Positions 43,322-62,801 of a stretch of DNA of 64,000 bases are shown here, piece by piece. Below the pieces are notes generated by a model. The model saw nothing but the letters and a program-made list of their open reading frames with translations, was not told the origin of the DNA and made no database searches. The DNA comes from Trueperaceae bacterium (GTDB lineage: Bacteria > Deinococcota > Deinococci > Deinococcales > Trueperaceae), in assembly GCA_965213705.1 (NCBI GenBank), contig OZ243913.1, positions 2,144,001-2,208,000 on the forward strand, in the 5' to 3' direction. Both the position numbers and the translations under genes were made by a program. Positions within the stretch are counted from its first letter, which is position 1. Every line of letters begins with the position of its first letter.

Positions 43322-44570
43322 TCGTTCATCCCCACGCACGTGGGGAATAGGTCATCCTTTTCCTTCCTTGTCTTCGCTTTTACGGTTCATCCCCACGTGC
43401 GTGGGGAACAGCTCCTAACACAACCGACTTGTTGGCCCAAAGACGGTTCATCCCCACGTGCGTGGGGAACAGGTTCGCGTGGCAATGGCCCGAGTAGCGC
43501 CACTCGGTTCATCCCCACGTGCGTGGGGAACAGTCTTTTGGTTTGTAAGTTTGTAGTGCTGTCTACGGTTCATCCCCACGTGCGTGGGGAACAGATTACC
43601 AGCCCCAGGCTGCTAGAGTTGTCTTGCGGTTCATCCCCACGTGCGTGGGGAACAGCGTCGTCTAAATCCTTGCGCTGCTTGAAGGCGCGGTTCATCCCCA
43701 CGTGCGTGGGGAACAGACTTGTACCGATGCTCGCCAAAGCAAGCTCGGCGGTTCATCCCCACGTGCGTGGGGAACAGGTTGAAGGCGTCCATCGCGCCCG
43801 ACGTGACGGCGGTTCATCCCCACGTGCGTGGGGAACAGGTCTCGCGTGGCGGGCTGCTGGGCTTCTTAGGCGGTTCATCCCCACGTGCGTGGGGAACAGG
43901 TCCTCTACTATCGGCAGCTGCGGCAGGTTGGCGGTTCATCCCCACGTGCGTGGGGAACAGGGGTCGGGTGGGTCGGAAGGCAAGGGCAACTTCGGTTCAT
44001 CCCCACGTGCGTGGGGAACAGGGTAGCGGAAAGCGGGCCGCTGTGAATTGTTCCGGTTCATCCCCACGTGCGTGGGGAACAGCCCACCAAGAACGAACGC
44101 GGCACTCGCGTCTGCGGTTCATCCCCACGTGCGTGGGGAACAGGTTGGCGAGCACCGGGTCGACCTCGGTCGGGTCGGTTCATCCCCACGTGCGTGGGGA
44201 ACAGGCGGGTGTACTTGCTTGCGGCTGGTGCCATTACGGTTCATCCCCACGTGCGTGGGGAACAGAACAGGGTCACACCAATAACTTCGAACTCCCACGG
44301 TTCATCCCCACGTGCGTGGGGAACAGGACACGGTAGTTGCGGCGGTTCCCCAGTATCTCGGTTCATCCCCACGTGCGTGGGGAACAGTGAACGACATAAA
44401 AAACAAACTCGAACACGCTCGGTTCATCCCCACGTGCGTGGGGAACAGCTTGCTGTTGTGGTCGGCGTGGTCGTACTTCTCGGTTCATCCCCACGTGCGT
44501 GGGGAACAGGGCGTCGTTTATGCTATTTAGGACGGTTCCGACGGTTCATCCCCACGTGCGTGGGGAACAG
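43322..44570 (-). CRISPR. Type I-E CRISPR array 1: 21 repeats, 20 spacers of 32 nt
   Basis: Repeat (+) CGGTTCATCCCCACGTGCGTGGGGAACAG with 61-bp period; degenerate terminal repeat at 43322; leader on the right. Confidence 0.98.
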
Positions 44571-44632
44571 ACTAGACCAGCACGTAAAAACTAGCCTTCG
44601 GAGGCCCCTATGTCTCCTTTAGAGTTGTCATG
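44571..44632 (-). promoter_or_regulatory. Leader of array 1, overlapping the 3' end of cas2
   Basis: ACTAGACC...AAAAACTA...AGTTGTCA is shared with the array 2 leader at 58377-58440. Confidence 0.8.
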
Positions 44633-48289: not shown

Positions 48290-48867
48290 CGGGGTCCTTT
48301 CTGGTTTTCTTTTGTGTCGGAGGTGTCGGGAACATCGGGGTTAAAGCCGTAGTACTGTTGCGCCCAGCGGCGCTGAACATAGCGGCTCTGGTTTTGCCAG
48401 CCAAAGAGGTCGCGGAGTAGTGCCGCGTAGTTTAGGCCGATGCCCTCAGCTTTTAGCAGGCTGACGAGTTGGCGCAAGTGGTAGACGAGCTGTTTCTCTT
48501 CTTCCGCAGCCAAGAGCGCGAGAAAACGTTTCTCCAGGCTCCCGCTCTCGCGCCTGTGACTAAGAACCGCCATTGCCTTGCCGAAACCCCCCTGAGAGGC
48601 GGACTCTGGATGAGAGGCGTAGAGCCCCGCGACGAGGTAGAACATGGCGCGTCGCCAGTAGCCTGTGCTTTCGTCCAGCGTTGCGACGAACGGCTCGACG
48701 TAGGGGAATGCTGGAACATGCGTGCCCAGGTCGAAGCTGAGACTTTTTCTAAGCTCGGCCAAGTGTTGCCGTTTGGCTCCCCGCGTTTTGGCCGGGTTGA
48801 GCTTATCCAGGCGATGAATAAAGCGTTCGGCTACATCTGTTCGTGTGCTCGAGGGCGTGTCTGTCAT
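48286..48867 (-). CDS. cas11: Cas11 (Cse2/CasB)
   Basis: [32 protein letters not shown] and WA..YY motifs. Confidence 0.94.
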
Positions 48868-50378
48868 GCTGCCTCCTGTGGGGCTGGCCCAGTGGTTTCT
48901 TCGCGCAGGCGTTTGAGGTAGGTGTTGACGACCTTGCTCGCCTCAGCCCCGGCCCGCCAGGCGCGCTCGTTTTCCCCGGCGCTCTTTAAGGCAAGCTCCC
49001 AGGCTTCGCGCGTCACGGCGGTGATTTGCCCCAACCACCAACTGAACCGCTCCTCAAAGGTTTGAGTCTCGAAGCGCTCCAGCAGTTCGGGAAAGCGGGT
49101 CTCGAGCCTGCTCCAGTAGTGCATACTGGCGGGAAAGCTCGAGGCTAAGTTGCGAACATCTGCCGGGTCGGGTTTGCGTTCGCCGACGCTCAGTAACTTC
49201 TCCGCCAGGCGCTGCGTCGCGCCGTAGAGGGTGCGCCCGCCGTCGTCGGCGTACTCGAGCAGCCGCTTCATACCGGCGTAAGCTCCCGGTTGGAGGAGCA
49301 CCTGCGGTACATTGAACTGCTCGGTGCGCCACAGCACGATTTTGGCTTTGTCGTTGCTCAGGCCGGAAATTAATAGGGTGAGGGGGTCGCTGCGCTCGAG
49401 GACTGCGTACAGATTGCTCGCGTGTTTTACTGTCTGAGGCGCAAAAAACTTTTTGCCTTCAGGATCATCAGGATGAGGTATAAGTGCGTGAAAGTCCCGC
49501 CAGAATGCCTTGTATTTGTTGAAGGATACCGGCAGAAGCCCCCGCTTGTCGTCCCTGCGGTAGGCCAGCATGGGGTCGAGACTGCCTTCACTATCAAACT
49601 TGATTCCTGCCGCATAATGCAGCGCCGACACGGGCTTGCCTTCCTCGGGTTCTTGCAACTTAACGATGCGCGTCAGCCAGGTGTAACGCTCGGTGAGCCC
49701 TCTCGCGCCGCGCGGTTTGGCGGCTTTTACCGCCGCGCTCTTTGGTGTTCCTTGCTCCCAAATAGGCGCGTCATCCTCATTCGCCTCTTCAAAGTAAGGA
49801 ACGAGGTTGAGAACCAGTGTCTCGAACAGATTGCGACCTTGCGGCAGCACGAACGCCGCGCCGCCTGCCGGGCTGGGGCTGTAGCCCGCGCCCTCGGGGA
49901 TGGCGGTCATCTGCCGGGTCACGAGCAGTTGCGCGATTTCGGCGTGCGTCAACTCCGGCGGGTCGGCCTCCGCGGTGTGGTCGAAGAGGAGTTTGTTCGT
50001 GCCGCTGGCGAGTTCGGCTGCGAGCCGGGCGACCCCAGACACCTTATCTTCCGAGTCTGGCACCTGATAGAAGGGCCTTTCAGGGTGGAACAGGTCGAAG
50101 CGGTCTTGCCAGTGCTTGAGATAAGCGCCGACGCGCTCCGCCGGGAACCGACCCTGTTCGAACAACTCGACCCCTTCGTCGGTAGTGCGTGGCCCGTCCA
50201 GCGCCCGGTACAGCACAGCTAATAAAAAGCGGTGCAGCGCCGGGAGTACGGCGGGGGAGGAGTGGACTAGCCGCGCGTAGCGGTGGGCGTTTAACAAAAC
50301 CCCCTTTAGCGAGTCCTGGCCTAGCGAGCCGTCTGAGTTTTCGACCGGCAGCCAAGGTTCATGGACGAGGTTAAACAT
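48864..50378 (-). CDS. cas8e: Cas8e (Cse1/CasA)
   Basis: FNLVHEPWLPV, RFDLFHPERPFYQ, LFDH and GRNLFETLVLN motifs; AAGGAGG RBS. Confidence 0.95.
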   Translation of the reverse strand: MFNLVHEPWLPVENSDGSLGQDSLKGVLLNAHRYARLVHSSPAVLPALHRFLLAVLYRALDGPRTTDEGVELFEQGRFPAERVGAYLKHWQDRFDLFHPERPFYQVPDSEDKVSGVARLAAELASGTNKLLFDHTAEADPPELTHAEIAQLLVTRQMTAIPEGAGYSPSPAGGAAFVLPQGRNLFETLVLNLVPYFEEANEDDAPIWEQGTPKSAAVKAAKPRGARGLTERYTWLTRIVKLQEPEEGKPVSALHYAAGIKFDSEGSLDPMLAYRRDDKRGLLPVSFNKYKAFWRDFHALIPHPDDPEGKKFFAPQTVKHASNLYAVLERSDPLTLLISGLSNDKAKIVLWRTEQFNVPQVLLQPGAYAGMKRLLEYADDGGRTLYGATQRLAEKLLSVGERKPDPADVRNLASSFPASMHYWSRLETRFPELLERFETQTFEERFSWWLGQITAVTREAWELALKSAGENERAWRAGAEASKVVNTYLKRLREETTGPAPQEAA

Positions 50379-50435
50379 TTCGGCCTCCTTTCAAAAGTAG
50401 TGTAAGAGGGGGGTGCGTCATGTAGTGACGTCGCC

Positions 50436-50470
50436 AAAATAAAGAAGTGAGGCGCGGGATGCGCCTCACT
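50436..50470 (-). terminator. Intrinsic terminator upstream of cas8e
   Basis: AGTGAGGCGC-ATCCC-GCGCCTCACT followed by TCTTTATTTT on the minus strand. Confidence 0.85.
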
Positions 50471-50820
50471 ACGGCTAACGGTCTACGTCATTATCGAACG
50501 AGCTTGTCAGCATCAACTTTTGCCACTCTCCGTGTCGAAGGTTCAAGGCCGACTGAAAGTGGGGCCAGAACTTCCATAGCACGGGGCGGTCTCGCTCATC
50601 AACCTGGTATAGGCTGTCTCTAAAGGCTTGATAGGTTGCGTCATCTATGTCAAGCAGAGCACCACATCCTCACTTTGGTGAGAGGATGCCCTTCACGCTT
50701 GACCCCCACGTGACCAAGATTTAGAGCGGGGGTGGTAGATTAAGGTGAAGGACATATTCCTTCGGTGAAGAGCGAGATGACTATTGGAGTAGGAGTCTCG
50801 CTCTTCTCGTTTGCGGTCAC
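50436..50820 (-). ncRNA. Predicted ~380-nt structured transcript (CreT/CreP-like candidate)
   Basis: Bounded by a sigma70-type promoter and a terminator; several hairpins; contains a 20-aa ORF (50755-50693) and a 64-codon open frame (50669-50475) with no canonical start near its 5' end. Confidence 0.55.
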
Positions 50821-50826
50821 GAGCTT

Positions 50827-50888
50827 ACAGTAGCTCGAGTTCTTTCGAAAGTCAATGATATTTATCCTCTTGCAGAGGAGTTGTACTT
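50827..50888 (-). promoter_or_regulatory. Promoter with adjacent AAG-PAM protospacer for the mini-array spacer
   Basis: TTGACT (50855-50850), 17 bp, TACTGT (50832-50827); protospacer 50885-50861; PAM AAG at 50888-50886. Confidence 0.8.
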
Positions 50889-50908: not shown

Positions 50909-50990
50909 AATATAAACCCCACATTAGTGGGGAAGTTTTTTACCTTATGCAAAGGACTTGTATGGTTCATCCCAACGTTGTCGGGAAAAT
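50909..50990 (-). CRISPR. Degenerate mini-array: two pseudo-repeats and a 25-nt spacer (creA/creR-like)
   Basis: Minus strand: ATTTTCCCGAC-AAC-GTTGGG-ATGAACCA, spacer TACAAGTCCTTTGCATAAGGTAAAA, AACTTCCCCAC-TAAT-GTGGGG-TTTATATT. Confidence 0.85.
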
Positions 50991-51051
50991 ACTTCATTAT
51001 CTATTCTACCCATAACCGTTGTACCTACGTGGTGCAGGACTATCTTTTGGG

Positions 51052-51450
51052 CTACCCTGTTACTCCCTCTGCTTTTTCATCGGGCTTTATGCTGAGCGGT
51101 TTTGGCGCGGTAGCTTCAAGCATTGGTACAAACAGCGTAGCGACCTCATCACGGGTCTCGGCATCTTGCAAGGTGATGTCAAGACGGCACCCTACCGCGT
51201 GGGCGTAGCGGCTGAGCACCTCGAGCGCTAATGCCGTACCCTCGACACTTTCAATCTGCGATACGCGTGGACGCGTCACGCCCATGCGCTCGGCAACCTC
51301 ACGCTGGCTCAAACCCTTAGCCTCACGCATAGCGCGCAGCGCCGCTCCAATCTCTTCGTTAGCGACCTCACGGTACAGAGCAGCGTAACCGGGGTCTTGC
51401 AAAAACTCTTTGCTTAGGTCGCTCGCTCGTTTCAAGGGACGTTTTGGCAT
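51052..51450 (-). CDS. XRE-family HTH antitoxin (HigA-like)
   Basis: LRAMREAKGLSQREVAERMGVTRPRVSQIE...L.RYA.AVG. Confidence 0.9.
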   Translation of the reverse strand: MPKRPLKRASDLSKEFLQDPGYAALYREVANEEIGAALRAMREAKGLSQREVAERMGVTRPRVSQIESVEGTALALEVLSRYAHAVGCRLDITLQDAETRDEVATLFVPMLEATAPKPLSIKPDEKAEGVTG

Positions 51451-51454
51451 GGCG

Positions 51455-51814
51455 TTACTCCTTGTTATATTCCTCGTAAGCTGCCAAAGCTTTCCTAATA
51501 AGCTTACGGTCAGCTTGGTTCTGCTGCTTCACCTCTCCCGCGGCGGCGATGAATATATTTTTGTCCTGTTGCCAGTAATAAATGCGTACGGCGTTACGTC
51601 CGGTTTTGCCGCGCAGTTCGTAAATCGGCCCATCTATATGACTGACGTAGGGAAACGACAGTGTTTTACCTTTGTCCTCGAGCAGCGCGATGAGCCAATC
51701 GACTTTCGCAGAAGCTTTAGGATTGGAGCGTCTAAGCACCTTGCGCCACTCCCGGAACTCGGAGTAACCGTTTTCGTCCTCGTACTCATAAACAATGTAC
51801 GGTGTAGAACTCAC
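51455..51814 (-). CDS. RelE/ParE-superfamily toxin (HigB/Gp49-like)
   Basis: LLEDKG..LSFPYVSHIDGPIYELR......RIYY..KQ motif; toxin gene precedes the antitoxin. Confidence 0.88.
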   Translation of the reverse strand: MSSTPYIVYEYEDENGYSEFREWRKVLRRSNPKASAKVDWLIALLEDKGKTLSFPYVSHIDGPIYELRGKTGRNAVRIYYWQQDKNIFIAAAGEVKQQNQADRKLIRKALAAYEEYNKE

Positions 51815-51915: not shown

Positions 51916-54900
51916 CTACTCATACACAATTCCCAACGCATCGTCATAGCGAACAGTCAATTTCCCAACCACCGCCACCCCCCCCTCAAAAATGAGCGGG
52001 AAACAGTAGCGCAGCAGCGGCTGCTTCTGCCAAGCGGGTACTGGATGTTTAACAAGCTCGAACACAAGCCCTTTACGGCTCAGCTTGAGGTGTTGCAGAT
52101 AGAGGGTTCTCGCCGCTTGCCATGAGGGTTCCTTGTTCAACACGATTTCGGTTTCGTAGGAGGGCTCGAGGTAAAGCTTGTCATCCTTTTTGTGTAAGGG
52201 GATGACCGTGACGCTGGGATCGCCTAAACGGGTCATGGGCCGGTAATGTTCATGAATGCTGGGGTCTTCGTCGTCCTCCGCTAAAATATCTTTTGCGACA
52301 CCGTCGATACCTGCATAATCTTTGGGCAACGCTACTACAGTCTTATTATCGTGTGCCTTTCGTTTGTGAAGTTGCACCACCTCTTCTTGATTGGCGCGGC
52401 TTTGCTCAACCACCTCACGGGCAAAACCCGGCAGCGCCGTCACATCGGGCTCGCCGTATACGGCTTTGACAAGCGGCTCAAAGTCTTCAGGTAACGCAAT
52501 AACTTCCTTATCAGCCAAGGTCCACCACGTCATGTACAGAGTGAACGCTTCGTAAATTCGGTCGAAATATTCGCCGCTTTCGCCGCTGATGTCCGGGAGC
52601 GTCTCGGCGTCGGTCAGCCCTGCCACGTAGAGGACGGGCGACGCGTGGGTGGCGGAACGTTCGCGCTCGTGGCGGTGCATCCGTCCGGCACGCTGCAAGA
52701 GTAGATCGACAGGTGCTAAGTCACTCACCATCACGTCGAAGTCCAAGTCCAGGCTCTGCTCGACCACCTGCGTGGCGATGAGAATAGCTTTGGCTGGGCG
52801 CTCCCCATTCTTGCCGAACTTCTCCAGCACCGCTTGTTCTCGCTTTTGCCGTTCCGCCGCAGGATAACGAGCGTGAAACAAATAAACCTCGGTGTCGTCA
52901 GGCAAACGCTTTCCGGTCTCGAGACTTTCACCTTCTCCCAACAAGCTGTAAAGAGCCTGTGCCCGCTGCACTGTGTTTAGAATAGCCACCGCACAACCGC
53001 CGTCCGTTACTAAATTTGTGAGGAGGTTTGCGACTGTCTCGAGTCCCAAGCTGACCCTTTTCAAATCTATAGGCTTCTGCTCTCTCACCGAGAACGAATA
53101 CTCCTTGGTCTTTCCGCCCAGCACCTGCGTGATGCGCGGGTAGGAGACAGACTCCTCGGCCTCGCCACCCCCAAAAGCCTTGACTAAATCTAAACGCTTG
53201 GCGGCGGGCAACGTCGCGCTCATGATGATGACCGACGAGCCGAGCGCGTGCAGCCAGCGCACGAGGCGCTCGATGAGTTTGCTCGTGTAAAGCTCGTAGG
53301 CGTGAACTTCGTCTAAAACAACCGTGCGGTTGCCCAACCCCCACAGGCGGACAAACTGGTGCTTGATGTTGAGAACGCTCAAAAGCGCCTGGTCGACCGT
53401 GCCCACCCCGTTTTCAGACAGCAGCGCTCGCTTTTTACTTGTGAACCAGGTTCTGGCCCACACCTCGCCCTCTTTGTTGTCCACCCCATCTACATCCTTA
53501 ACTTGGATGGTGGCGTAAGCGTCGTTGAGCAGGCTTGCGCCGTGCAAAAGCTGCAAGTCGGGTGGCGCGTCGCGCTCGAAGGTGCCGAGCAGGTCTTTGG
53601 TGCGCTCGAACATGGCATTACCCGTTGCTTGTGTGGGCAGCGCCACGTATAAGCCTCGGTGTCCCAACTGCCGCTGTAAAGTGACGTGAGCGTAGAAGGC
53701 AGCCTCCGTTTTACCTTCACCCATCGGTGCTTCGATGATGATGAGGGAGGGTTTATGAGTTTTCTCAACAAGGTCGACGATGTGCGCCTGAAGACCGTTG
53801 GGCTCAAAAGAAAAAATGGTGTTGAAGGCTCGCGGTTCCGCCGCTAAAGGCTCACGGCGCTCCCAGCCTATCTTGTCTAGGGCCTTACGCGCTTTTAGCA
53901 GTGAATCGAGAAAGTGTTCTCGCAGATTTATTACTTTTCGGTCGGTAGGAAAAAAGTCGACCGTTGAGCCAATCCAATCGGCGAAGCTGGTCAAGCCTGC
54001 CAACCTGATAAAGCCTTGCCCTGTGAGTGCGGTGGTGGTCGGCGGCGAGATTTGAACGACTTCTACTGCTTTCAGGAACTCAGTTAGAACCTCCTGCCGG
54101 GTCTCTTGCCAAGCGTCGTCGCCCATATCTTGCTTTGGAATTACGTTGTCTGACAAGTCACCCTTTGCAGTTCGCAGGCCGTGATGTGCGCCTACGGCGT
54201 CGGCAACTTGAGCGACGAGATTCCTGCCTAAGCCGTAGGTTTTAAGTTCGGTCTGCAAGATTTTCTGTGAGAGTTTTCCGTGTGCAGTGCCCTTGTCACC
54301 CTTACTAAAAGTAAGCCCCGCCGCCTCGACCACCAGTCGTCCTGGTTCCCATTGCCGCTGGAAGGCCGGGGTCGCCTTGCCGATGTCGTGCAAACCGGTG
54401 AGCGCGGCTATCCACCGTTTAGCGTCGCCGGGCTCGAGCCCCAAATCCTCCGCGTAAAGCCGCAAAGTCTGCGGGGGTTCGCGCTCGAGCAACACTTGCG
54501 CCACCGCCGCCACATCCAACAGATGTCCCACGAGGCTGTAGCCCTGCTCGTCTTCGCCACTTTTGGCCCACAGGGCCGCCGCCTTTGCTGAAAGATTGGT
54601 CATGGGTTCAGTGTGTCCTTTTGGTGCGTCATTTACTGACGCGAGCCTCGTTTTTAGGTGGGGATGCTGTAAGGCGACGGCGCTGGCTTCACTCAACCAG
54701 CGTTCGCGCAAAGCTTTGGGCGCTAGAACGTCAACTCGTGGCCCCCAGCTTTGCACCCAAGGGAGAATTTCTCTTGGAAAGCCTGCGTTGTCGGTGCCCA
54801 CCTTGATTTCGACCTCGAGCGAGCCGTCCGCGAGTTCTTCTTTTAAAACCAAGTTGGGATAACCGCCTTCTCTAATACGCGCAGCAGCCTCTGGCTTGAA

Positions 54901-55617
54901 GCGCAGATACACCGTAGCAACCTCAGCTTCTTGCCCGCCCATCACGCCCCAGGCAGCGCTCAGATATTCACTCGGCACAAAGGTTTCAGGAACAATGTAG
55001 CTGGTTTCCAAAATCCGAACATCGCTCATCCGCGAGAGCTTGAAGGTGAGGACTCGGTCGAAGCTACATTCTTTGCCGATGGCGTACAAAGCCAAGTTGT
55101 CGCGACTGACCTCGATCAAATAAGTTTCCAGCTCGCGCCACTCTGCACGGTTGGGCTTGTCAGCCGTAGTGTATTTGAAACGCAGAACTCTGCTCTCAAA
55201 CCAAGCCCGCGCCACAAACTCCAAGGCTCGGTCGTCGCTGGAACGCACTTTCAGGTCTTGCGCACTTGCCGCCGCGATTCCCTTGGCAGGTTCGGGTAGC
55301 AGTGACGCCAGCTTCTCCAACGCCGAGCGGTAGTAAAGGTTTCGAGTGGGTGAGTGGTGATACAAAAGCCTTACCGCCGCGTGGACTGCAAGCCCTTCGA
55401 CAGCGTTGAGCGACGAACCCGTCGGCGTGAGACGGTGGCGGAAATCCTCTGAGGTTTCGATAGCACAACCGCTCTCACGCAGCGTCTGAATGTCGCGCTG
55501 GATGGTTCTGACCGGCACGCCGTAGCGCTGGGCAAGTTCCTTGATGGTGTACGGCTTTAGCCGCAACAGTTCAGGCAACTCCGCCAAGCGCCGAGCTTTA
55601 CTCTGCGTCCGCGTCAC
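51916..55617 (-). CDS. cas3: HTH-WYL-WCX regulator fused to Cas3 (HD nuclease + SF2 helicase)
   Basis: Residues 1-~315 carry HTH (ELAQRYGVPVRTIQRDIQTL), TFKLSRM and WVQSWGPRVDVLAP. Cas3 follows with LWAKS, HLLDV, LHDIGKA, HHG, APMGEGKTE, DEVH, SAT and QRAGRMHRH. Single uninterrupted frame. Confidence 0.93.
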   Translation of the reverse strand: MTRTQSKARRLAELPELLRLKPYTIKELAQRYGVPVRTIQRDIQTLRESGCAIETSEDFRHRLTPTGSSLNAVEGLAVHAAVRLLYHHSPTRNLYYRSALEKLASLLPEPAKGIAAASAQDLKVRSSDDRALEFVARAWFESRVLRFKYTTADKPNRAEWRELETYLIEVSRDNLALYAIGKECSFDRVLTFKLSRMSDVRILETSYIVPETFVPSEYLSAAWGVMGGQEAEVATVYLRFKPEAAARIREGGYPNLVLKEELADGSLEVEIKVGTDNAGFPREILPWVQSWGPRVDVLAPKALRERWLSEASAVALQHPHLKTRLASVNDAPKGHTEPMTNLSAKAAALWAKSGEDEQGYSLVGHLLDVAAVAQVLLEREPPQTLRLYAEDLGLEPGDAKRWIAALTGLHDIGKATPAFQRQWEPGRLVVEAAGLTFSKGDKGTAHGKLSQKILQTELKTYGLGRNLVAQVADAVGAHHGLRTAKGDLSDNVIPKQDMGDDAWQETRQEVLTEFLKAVEVVQISPPTTTALTGQGFIRLAGLTSFADWIGSTVDFFPTDRKVINLREHFLDSLLKARKALDKIGWERREPLAAEPRAFNTIFSFEPNGLQAHIVDLVEKTHKPSLIIIEAPMGEGKTEAAFYAHVTLQRQLGHRGLYVALPTQATGNAMFERTKDLLGTFERDAPPDLQLLHGASLLNDAYATIQVKDVDGVDNKEGEVWARTWFTSKKRALLSENGVGTVDQALLSVLNIKHQFVRLWGLGNRTVVLDEVHAYELYTSKLIERLVRWLHALGSSVIIMSATLPAAKRLDLVKAFGGGEAEESVSYPRITQVLGGKTKEYSFSVREQKPIDLKRVSLGLETVANLLTNLVTDGGCAVAILNTVQRAQALYSLLGEGESLETGKRLPDDTEVYLFHARYPAAERQKREQAVLEKFGKNGERPAKAILIATQVVEQSLDLDFDVMVSDLAPVDLLLQRAGRMHRHERERSATHASPVLYVAGLTDAETLPDISGESGEYFDRIYEAFTLYMTWWTLADKEVIALPEDFEPLVKAVYGEPDVTALPGFAREVVEQSRANQEEVVQLHKRKAHDNKTVVALPKDYAGIDGVAKDILAEDDEDPSIHEHYRPMTRLGDPSVTVIPLHKKDDKLYLEPSYETEIVLNKEPSWQAARTLYLQHLKLSRKGLVFELVKHPVPAWQKQPLLRYCFPLIFEGGVAVVGKLTVRYDDALGIVYE

Positions 55618-61003: not shown

Positions 61004-61258
61004 ATGCAAACGACCTTGCGTATCGATGACCACCTCTACCGCGAAGCCAAGGCAGAAGCCGCCCGCCAAGGCGTCACGATGACGCGCTTTATCGAAGAGG
61101 CCCTTGAGCTGAGGCTCAAACGCCGCCCGGTCGAAGGCGGTTCTGTGACACTGCCGACCTTTGGTTTTGGGGCGGGCTTCGACTTCGGCCCCGGCCAGCT
61201 CAAGCAACTTGGGCAAGAGAGTGAAGCTCAACACGACCTCGGCAAACTCACCCGCTGA
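61004..61258 (+). CDS. VapB-like ribbon-helix-helix antitoxin
   Basis: MQTTLRIDDHLYREAKAEAARQGVTMTRFIEEAL...LPTFG. Confidence 0.88.
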   Translation: MQTTLRIDDHLYREAKAEAARQGVTMTRFIEEALELRLKRRPVEGGSVTLPTFGFGAGFDFGPGQLKQLGQESEAQHDLGKLTR

Positions 61259-61260
61259 CG

Positions 61261-61691
61261 TTGTATCTTCTCGACGCCAACGTCCTCATCCACGCCTTTC
61301 GAGAGGATGCGCCTTTTCATCGGGTTTGCTATGACTGGCTCACCAACGCCCTCGCACAAGGTGAAGAAGTTACGGCCCCGAGCGTGGTCGAGTTGGCGCT
61401 GTTCGAATCACGACCTTGCCCAGCTTGGGAGACGCCGCCACCCCTGAAGCGGTTTTCGCCTTCTTGCAAGCCCTTAGACAAACCAGTTACCGGCGGCTCG
61501 AGCCCGGTGCGGCGCATGACGGGCACTTGCGGCATTTGTGCAACTCCCTGAACCTGCGGGGCAACGATGTCAACGATGCGTTTTTAGCAGCCCTTGCTTT
61601 GGAGCGCAACGCGGTCCTAGTCAGTGCCGACCAGGGCTTTAGGCGCTTTCCCATGATTAGCGTGCTTGACCCGACGGACGCCGCCCAATAA
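61261..61691 (+). pseudogene. vapC: VapC PIN toxin split by a frameshift near 61400
   Basis: LLDANVLIHA...WL...VELAL continues in another frame as RITTLPS...GNDVNDAFLAALALE...VSADQGFRRF. Confidence 0.85.
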
Positions 61692-61878: not shown

Positions 61879-62292
61879 ATGGACGTATTTCGCCCCAACA
61901 CCCCTGAGGCTGCAACTCCTCGAGCCAAGCCGTTCCGTGAGATCGTCTCCCAGGTCGAACAGGGCTACCCCTTCGACGCTTTCTTAGACCTGAGTGAGCG
62001 GCTTGGCGTGGCGCAAAGTCTGCTCGCCTTGGTGCTCAACATCAGCAGCAGCACCTTGCAGCGGCGGCGTGGCGGCGCGTTCGACGTGGCGGAGTCGGGA
62101 AGAATTTACCAGTTGGAAAAACTCGTCGACCTGGCCGAAGCGACCATCGGCGACGAGGGAGACGCCCGGCGCTGGCTGACGACGCTCAACCCGAACCTGG
62201 GTGCTCCACCTTTAGAGTTGGCCCGAACAGCGCCTGGGATAGAGGCCGTCACGCGCTACTTGGAGCAAATTCAAGCCGGAGTTTATCTCTGA
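61879..62292 (+). CDS. Xre/MbcA/ParS-type antitoxin
   Basis: VEQGYP, LNISSSTLQRRR, ES.RI, ARRWL...NP.LG..PLELA.T..G...V..YL..I..GVY motifs. Confidence 0.9.
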   Translation: MDVFRPNTPEAATPRAKPFREIVSQVEQGYPFDAFLDLSERLGVAQSLLALVLNISSSTLQRRRGGAFDVAESGRIYQLEKLVDLAEATIGDEGDARRWLTTLNPNLGAPPLELARTAPGIEAVTRYLEQIQAGVYL

Positions 62293-62294
62293 AG

Positions 62295-62801
62295 GTGTTC
62301 CGGCTCAGCAGTGAGCCTTATCATCAGCCGAAAGACGCCTTCAGCGGTGTGGGCGCAGCCAGGTGGGGCGGTCGCTGGAACGGTCCCGGTGTGAGTCTCG
62401 TCTATACCTCTTCTTCTCCCTCGCTGGCGGCCCTCGAGCGCCTGGTTCACACCTTCTCGGTACGTGGATTGGCAGGCTTGTGGATTTACAGCGTCGAGGT
62501 CGACGAAGATAACAGCCTCTACCTGCCCGACGACGAGCTGCCGCCGGACTGGGACCGGGTACCGGTGCCCCCGGATTGGCACGCGCCGCCCTTAAAAGAG
62601 ACGCAGCTCATCGGGAACGACTGGTGCGAGCGCAGTGCTTCGCTGCTGTTGCGAGTGCCGAGCGCGGTGGTGCCGGGCGAGTACAACTACCTGCTCAACC
62701 CGGCCCATCCTGCTTGGGGAACGGTGCGCCTCGAGCCGCCTCAACAGTTTCATTTTGACGAGCGCCTAAAAGGTTTGGTCGGGGCTTATGAGGCTCGGTA
62801 G
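62295..62801 (+). CDS. RES-domain toxin
   Basis: FSGVGAARWGGRWN.PG..VYTSSS.SLA.LE, LP.DW and VPSAVVP.EYNYLLNP.HP motifs. Confidence 0.92.
   Translation: MFRLSSEPYHQPKDAFSGVGAARWGGRWNGPGVSLVYTSSSPSLAALERLVHTFSVRGLAGLWIYSVEVDEDNSLYLPDDELPPDWDRVPVPPDWHAPPLKETQLIGNDWCERSASLLLRVPSAVVPGEYNYLLNPAHPAWGTVRLEPPQQFHFDERLKGLVGAYEAR

Follow-up and report, generated by a model that had tools for sequence, protein, structure and literature searches.

What does a promoter express when a CRISPR guide encoded beside it seems to keep it under control? This question is raised by the DNA upstream of cas8e in a Trueperaceae bacterium, analysed here within a window, that is, the whole stretch of 64,000 nucleotides. 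The first-pass annotation had proposed a toxic RNA or a small protein that is released upon loss of Cascade; the protein payload stood, whereas the RNA branch as proposed, with a CUCCU loop and a 20-aa peptide, found no support, as neither is conserved. That a guide controls a small gene at this place is highly probable as a regulatory architecture. The further reading of its 60-aa product (P0001) as a candidate CRISPR-repressed fail-safe toxin of a new family, CrePA-like and associated with a type I-E system, has in our estimate a somewhat better than even chance of being right.

The locus lies within a 4.25-Mb single-contig genome and shows on the minus strand the order vapBC-like pair, HTH-WYL-WCX regulator running into cas3, RelE/Gp49-like gene with HTH partner, a gap of 670 nt, cas8e and the remaining type I-E operon, with a CRISPR array at each end. 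The second half of the gap upstream of cas8e is occupied by the small-gene unit (Table 1), and the description of a separate unit of about 380 nt under a guide-targeted promoter and closed by a terminator held for every feature at the place given (385 nt). The two flanking type I-E arrays (43322-44571 and from 56397) have differing repeat variants. Three toxin-antitoxin pairs occur in or near the locus (51814-51052, 56301-55598, and 61004-61691), in addition to a RES-type pair (61879-62801); the labels of the pair at 61004-61691 and of the RES-type pair are presumptive and based on motifs. A stop between the HTH-WYL-WCX frame and cas3 is absent in two genomes (window 55617-51916, minus; L019 1091-4780), and Cas3 might also be made on its own from an internal ATG, 6 nt past a -10-like hexamer; fused as well as free protein is possible.

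Table 1. Features of the small-gene unit and its neighbourhood, in positions of the window.
Feature	Position	Strand	Remark
cas8e (Cse1), first gene of the type I-E cascade operon	48864..50378	-	
Promoter-like motif of cas8e	50399..50431	-	palindrome (A/G)CGTCA-N5-TGACGC, N10, TACACT
Intrinsic terminator-like hairpin with U tract	50436..50470	-	-18.7 kcal/mol
P0001, small protein gene (payload)	50475..50657	-	60 aa, CTG start, acidic, helical
Long second hairpin	50683..50761	-	pairs SD of upstream ORF
Upstream ORF, 20 codons	50693..50755	-	position conserved, peptide not
First leader hairpin, 11 bp	50767..50806	-	inner CUA/UAG, AAUAGUCA motif; pair probability 0.99
Predicted promoter TTGACT-17-TACTGT	50827..50855	-	same geometry in relatives
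Self-target, AAG PAM (50888-50886) and protospacer from 50885	50861..50888	-	30 nt upstream of -35
Degenerate repeat 2	50909..50937	-	CCCCAC...GTGGGG hairpin retained
Guide spacer, about 25 nt	50938..50962	-	19/26 match to target
Degenerate repeat 1 of mini-array	50963..50991	-	3' GGGATGAACC end of array repeat retained
RelE/Gp49-like toxin and HTH antitoxin pair	51052..51814	-	upstream of mini-array; own promoter-like site
HTH-WYL-WCX regulator	51916..55617	-	in frame into cas3

The mini-array has the build of a CreA or CreR guide, with two degenerate repeats around a short spacer and a partial match to a PAM-flanked site beside a promoter. PAM-proximal mismatches between guide and target are located at positions 6 and 11. 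The genome contains 210 sites that match the seed exactly; 6 of them have AAG, and the self-target is the best of these 6, matching in 12 of 15 scored positions. Transcription was inferred to start near 50820; the predicted promoter was not listed by a consensus promoter scan. In a Trueperaceae MAG with identical gene order (L019), spacer and target both differ from those of the window, yet they match each other over 19 consecutive bases, at a site 28 nt upstream of the -35. Guide and target co-vary more generally, and in 13 of 14 loci distinct spacers have their own AAG target with matches at 12-15 of 15 positions. In runs X1 and X2, three variants of the module were observed in one sample, with differing leaders and at least two different guides.

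The 60-aa frame downstream of this promoter had been put forward as a possible payload needing an unusual start, and it is present with the CTG start as written and is under purifying selection. When compared with its counterpart in L019, it shows a dN/dS of 0.09 (Sd 21/37, Nd 12/140), a value no higher than those of the cas genes (0.14-0.16). Differences fall in third positions in 20 of 33 cases, this frame is the only one of six that is open in both the window and L019, the other five containing stops, and pN/pS was 0.13-0.41 in all seven other pairs. The L019 counterpart starts with GTG where the window has CTG, and database homologues at 79% and 72% were called as genes with M at the position of this CTG. 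GTG and TTG starts count as weak evidence, because TTG also opens cas8e itself in many of the loci. A near-identical contig from run X1, possibly the source of the window DNA itself, shows no differing letters and therefore does not contradict the CTG start. Since this CTG is the sole such start among 13 loci and is predicted to be 0.02 unpaired, the copy in the window may be nearly silent.

P0001 was modelled as helices (pLDDT 77). The hydrophobic membrane helix characteristic of type I toxins is missing, the best 19-residue hydropathy being -0.16. Searches of Pfam, NCBIfam, PADLOC and PHROG gave no significant match to P0001, and no known toxin domain was seen in the small proteins. Fold searches with two models returned generic helices only (best Z 6.1 and 5.6), PDB sequence searches gave nothing below E 0.3, and the ESM Atlas no usable match.

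DNA upstream of cas8e was collected from 364 Deinococcota genomes (91 with a match), and the other mini-array loci contain small ORFs at the same place. The homologues upstream of cas8e that the first-pass annotation had suggested looking for were thus found in Trueperaceae, Meiothermus and Deinococcus, that is, in three Deinococcota families, as helical proteins of 50-67 aa without family name (among the named members are Truepera radiovictrix WP_041947270.1 and one of Meiothermus ruber). A joint profile retrieved 18 proteins, of which the named ones are all 'hypothetical'. P0021, the intact form of a gene that is frameshifted behind an intact guide in L032, matches P0001 with 35% across 87% of its length, and the piece from L032 matches the P0001 group with a probability of 84% (E 7.5e-6). 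Between the P0001 group and the Meiothermus-type group, 26 C-terminal columns match (probability 58%, E 1e-4). With the P0001-group profile, 7 of 13 Meiothermus-type proteins scored above all 32,382 background frames of the window's genome; with a profile of the seven new members alone, P0021 and P0030 scored above all background frames and P0001 at background, its scores with profiles of the distant groups being -0.4 and -1.1 bits. From these sequence comparisons a single family is likely, with P0001 as a divergent member whose connection to the distant ones runs indirectly via P0021; L051 and L094 are its least sure members.

Searches with single proteins found only two close homologues of P0001, and three repeat-protein matches from these searches were rejected. 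Longer forms were absent among 544 candidates. L020 (Bradyrhizobium) was dropped as it has no fitting ORF, as were weak genome matches inside long ORFs (among them G141 and G282). No relatives were found in viral contigs, plasmids or phages, the result for phages covering P0008 only. A literature search found no paper on the small-protein family, and supplementary tables, among them the large ones of PMC10120712, may already list these mini-arrays; the genus names are absent from two supplements of that paper.

For 94 cas8e loci the presence of the family was compared with that of a guide, a guide locus being defined by two repeats and a PAM-flanked target with at least 11 of 15 positions. The family is carried by 15 of 19 guide-bearing loci and by 0 of 75 others, counts that include related, non-independent genomes; once the 8 loci from which the profile was derived are excluded, the numbers are 7 of 11 versus 0 of 75, with the same non-independence of kin. 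None of the 75 loci scored above 4.6 bits; they take in two short contig ends, L027 with its mini-array and weak target, and L102 with a single repeat, and the repeat pattern used may miss degenerate guides among them. In six loci found by the protein alone (five from metagenomes and G301), the gene always lies 46-65 nt before cas8e, and five of them have guide and target, the sixth sequence being incomplete. A final profile search of the 364 genomes gave 14 strong matches, each of them at cas8e with no strong copy elsewhere, and two weak matches that fall within long ORFs.

The guide loci without the family are L118, L123, L031 and L043. In L118 (306-446, minus) and L123 (705-842), the same guide-controlled Deinococcus slot holds a second family of 46-47 aa without family name (pN/pS 0.38; no significant match in Pfam, PHROG or NCBIfam). 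L031 has an unrelated open frame in the slot. About 290 nt before its cas8e, a targeted promoter and a hairpin are followed by a four-codon frame with tandem AGG codons, possibly a CreT-like minigene, which overlaps the SD of a 62-codon frame lacking a usual start. In L027 (3127-3453, minus) a RelE/ParE-family gene (E 1.3e-14) stands directly before cas8e, separated by the mini-array from its HTH partner; this gene is frameshifted and the guide-target match is poor.

This distribution bears on a non-toxic role, in which the small protein would be a host-made brake of Cascade or Cas3, or a decoy for anti-CRISPRs, made once repression lifts. The family is found only before cas8e, heads the cascade operon in Meiothermus-type loci, and in 10 of 10 members tested consists of small, acidic proteins (pI 4.1-5.0), all of which is consistent with such a role. 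Several Cas8e-binding anti-CRISPRs are likewise small and acidic. A complex prediction for the L046 protein and Cas8e scored 0.00, which is neither support nor counter-evidence. However, 79 of the 94 surveyed cas8e loci lack the family, which therefore is no core subunit, unrelated cargo occupies the same slot, and six Deinococcus members are devoid of the acidic tail, and so we regard a brake or decoy as rather unlikely.

The RNA of the unit is predicted to fold strongly as well (z = -4.67 for the 385 nt; 0 of 100 shuffles fold equally well). The 11-bp stem proposed earlier is present, and its CUCCU loop is not retained in L019, where the stem is replaced, fold and motif are retained and CCTAC...AATAGTCA is still present. 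Although the leaders of the window and L019 do not align (z 1.6), they form the same two hairpins. A third variant, known from contigs of one sample only, keeps 31 of 34 letters of the first hairpin and 124 of 151 of the ORF. Of the 20-aa ORF only the position is conserved: L019 has 21 codons at +57, in the matching place, encoding an unrelated peptide. Of the two hairpins said to hide ribosome sites, GAAGGA/TCCTTC is predicted in nascent RNA (SD 0.02 unpaired at +85 nt) but not in the full transcript (probability 0.05), in which a long hairpin from +68 to +133 (p 0.95) displaces it; CATCCTC/GAGGATG appears in the local fold, but for the full RNA its CATCC/GGATG arm is given p 0.07. Other partners nevertheless keep the two SDs mostly paired (0.34 and 0.35 unpaired in the leader plus 57 nt). 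In constrained folding with a ribosome on the upstream ORF, the main SD went from 0.35 to 0.43 unpaired and the start codon was at 0.02, and because the main start is barely opened, translational coupling is unsupported by this test. The Meiothermus-type leader has 66 nt, a 5' hairpin with 4 compensatory of 18 predicted pairs and a paired SD; SD-locking hairpins together with a covarying 5' hairpin occur in 9 leaders. CCA is frequent in the loop of the first hairpin (window leader 50820-50658, L032, L118, L125, L131 and Meiothermus-type loci) and absent from it in L019, L051, L123 and L133. Two further readings were rejected on account of frame shifts: a leaderless 26-codon GTG ORF at +1, whose frame is disrupted in the third variant, and an N-terminal extension across the leader of Meiothermus type, whose frame is disrupted in L071.

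Could the leader RNA be the toxin, in the manner of CreT, or share the job with a secondary protein? The third variant conserves its first hairpin better than the ORF, the Meiothermus-type loop CGCCGCCA does not vary across the 9 leaders compared, and Acinetobacter CreT is reported to need only an SD, a start codon and a hairpin (PMC10097628). In that type, SD and start codon are inside the stem, whereas the AUG of the upstream ORF lies in the loop of the nascent hairpin. The AGA-AGA minigene had been noted as absent, and indeed there is none, although positions +14 to +19 do read AGA-AGA, behind an ACG without SD. When all frames of the unit with an ATG, GTG, TTG or CTG start were scanned, none had tandem AGA/AGG, ATA-ATA or Pro-Pro behind it, and the unit thus differs from tRNA-sequestering or proline-codon CreT (SD, start, tandem AGA/AGG, AUA or proline codons, stem-loop). 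Loop sequences vary between groups, including the loss of CUCCU in L019, Rfam returned nothing near gathering score, and it is the protein that is common to all groups and under selection. An RNA toxin is therefore very unlikely, and a protein toxin is the reading pursued below.

Downstream of the small gene two layouts were encountered. The terminator stem of the window spans 50470-50446 (pair probability 0.99) and is followed by TCTTTATTTT, and in both the window and L019 the order is small gene, terminator, palindrome with N10 and TACACT, and cas8e. Six Deinococcus members have strong hairpins past the gene, mostly without a U tract. Meiothermus-type loci have a gap of 20-65 nt between gene and cas8e and no terminator, so that small gene and cascade genes would come under joint repression by the guide. 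Autoregulation of CreR type, named earlier as the alternative, is accordingly not exclusive: it fits the Meiothermus-type loci, but in the window cas8e has its own promoter-like motif past the terminator. As a complete account, plain CreR-type control of the cas genes, with the small gene as passenger or translational-coupling leader, has in its favour that CreR is established for type I-E (10.1101/2023.03.10.532045), that Meiothermus-type loci read straight into cas8e and that in L043 guide and target come without an ORF of this kind in the slot. It leaves the purifying selection on the protein unexplained, and conserved cargo, terminator and separate cas8e motif set the window apart from a stand-alone CreR, in which the target controls a cas promoter without cargo; we hold it to be very improbable.

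The palindrome before cas8e is, by analogy, a candidate site of the WYL regulator of the locus. The genome contains three copies, the second (54642-54626, minus; with -10-like hexamer to 54610) before the internal Cas3 ATG and the third at G000 1847221, and the palindrome stands before cas3 in 5 of 6 WYL-bearing loci examined. GCGTCA-N5-TGACGC with N10 and a -10-like hexamer was observed before cas8e and/or cas3 in the window, L019, L076, L077, L078, L080, L032 and L035. Since the PafBC motif tGTCgg(N10)tA(N3)T has the same spacing (PMC8635444), activation by the WYL protein is suggested, and Trueperaceae loci with the WYL gene may form a candidate WYL-activated CRISPR regulon. A wider proposal, in which the family would be the first non-toxic output of CRISPR self-sensing (an anti-CRISPR decoy or Cascade brake made on Cascade loss) and the WYL protein would separately activate cas3 and cas8e via the PafBC -26-like palindrome, giving one locus two alarms, is unlikely.

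That the small protein is an orphan antitoxin-like module of TIGR02574 type, acting against a RelE/ParE toxin such as the one encoded 800 nt upstream in the window and L019, is extremely improbable. The position of that gene and weak contacts of 6 of 24 alignment members with this family (best E 0.011; L046 14.5 bits versus a cut-off of 31.9) speak for it; against it, neither P0001 nor any of 10 further proteins matches the family, the upstream RelE-like toxin has its own HTH partner, and 12 of 14 loci show no RelE homologue in the DNA compared.

A toxin role for the small protein is our best guess, because cargo of the known circuit is toxic, cargo in the slot is interchangeable and includes a RelE-like gene, and translation looks locked. 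The mini-array would be cut into a short guide, and Cascade carrying it would occupy the AAG-flanked target immediately before the -35 and dampen the promoter. Pairing of the two ribosome sites and the CTG start would leave any leaked RNA poorly translated. If Cascade disappears, loses out in competition or is inhibited by an anti-CRISPR, synthesis of the 60-aa protein would follow and stop growth. Co-transcription with cascade genes in Meiothermus-type loci would be tolerable for a potent toxin only if translation is tight. The unit of the window defines a type I-E candidate family over three Deinococcota families with named genomes, offers natural guide-target pairs for swap tests and encodes a protein that falls into no known fold or family. 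Should it prove toxic, this protein would found a toxin family of its own and could report on type I-E anti-CRISPRs in thermophiles; otherwise it would represent an output of a kind new to such circuits.

Type I toxin mRNAs (hok/mok, ldr) have a long folded leader, paired ribosome sites and an upstream ORF. The unit resembles them in all three respects, and differs from them by the missing membrane helix and by its probable repression through a CRISPR guide. CRISPR-repressed toxins have been described in types I-B and I-F (PMC8501985, PMC10097628, 10.1101/2024.01.05.574328), while for type I-E the text consulted describes autoregulation only (10.1101/2023.03.10.532045), and the question whether other CRISPR types and targets also have such modules is posed in a review of 2025 (PMC12737573). 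RNA toxins of CreTA systems are reported from haloarchaeal I-B (PMC8501985), Acinetobacter I-F (PMC10097628) and, as a proline-codon toxin, Pseudomonas I-F (10.64898/2026.06.02.729485), and the CreTA1 promoter is shared with cas genes (10.1101/2024.10.29.618823). Like CreTA, the unit gives a short hairpin-rich transcript, and as in the Pseudomonas modules (10.64898/2026.06.02.729485) the guide target lies about 30 bp upstream of the -35; unlike those RNAs with minigenes of 5-11 codons, it contains a 60-codon ORF under protein-level selection. As in type I-E CreR (10.1101/2023.03.10.532045; 10.1101/2023.03.03.530964), the mini-array lies in a long gap between cas3 and cas8, the target has AAG and position 6 is mismatched, whereas here a conserved protein gene is inserted between target and cas8e and, in the window, a terminator closes the unit. 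In the type I-F CrePA of Acinetobacter baylyi ADP1, CreP is a KilAC domain of 103 aa whose gene is situated between cas3 and csy1, some 120 bp past the target, and homologues are confined to this gap (10.1101/2024.01.05.574328); the terms I-E, Thermus, Meiothermus, Deinococc and Truepera are absent from that paper. Two degenerate repeats, a partial PAM-flanked target and a small protein gene downstream of it, between cas3 and the effector operon, are common to CrePA and the window. The protein of the window is no member of the CreP family proper (KilAC, about 103 aa, type I-F): it has 60 aa and no family match, belongs to type I-E and is preceded by a 163-nt folded leader with an upstream ORF. 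The circuit is thus of a kind already known, but its protein family is new, and the literature consulted reports autoregulation only for this CRISPR type.
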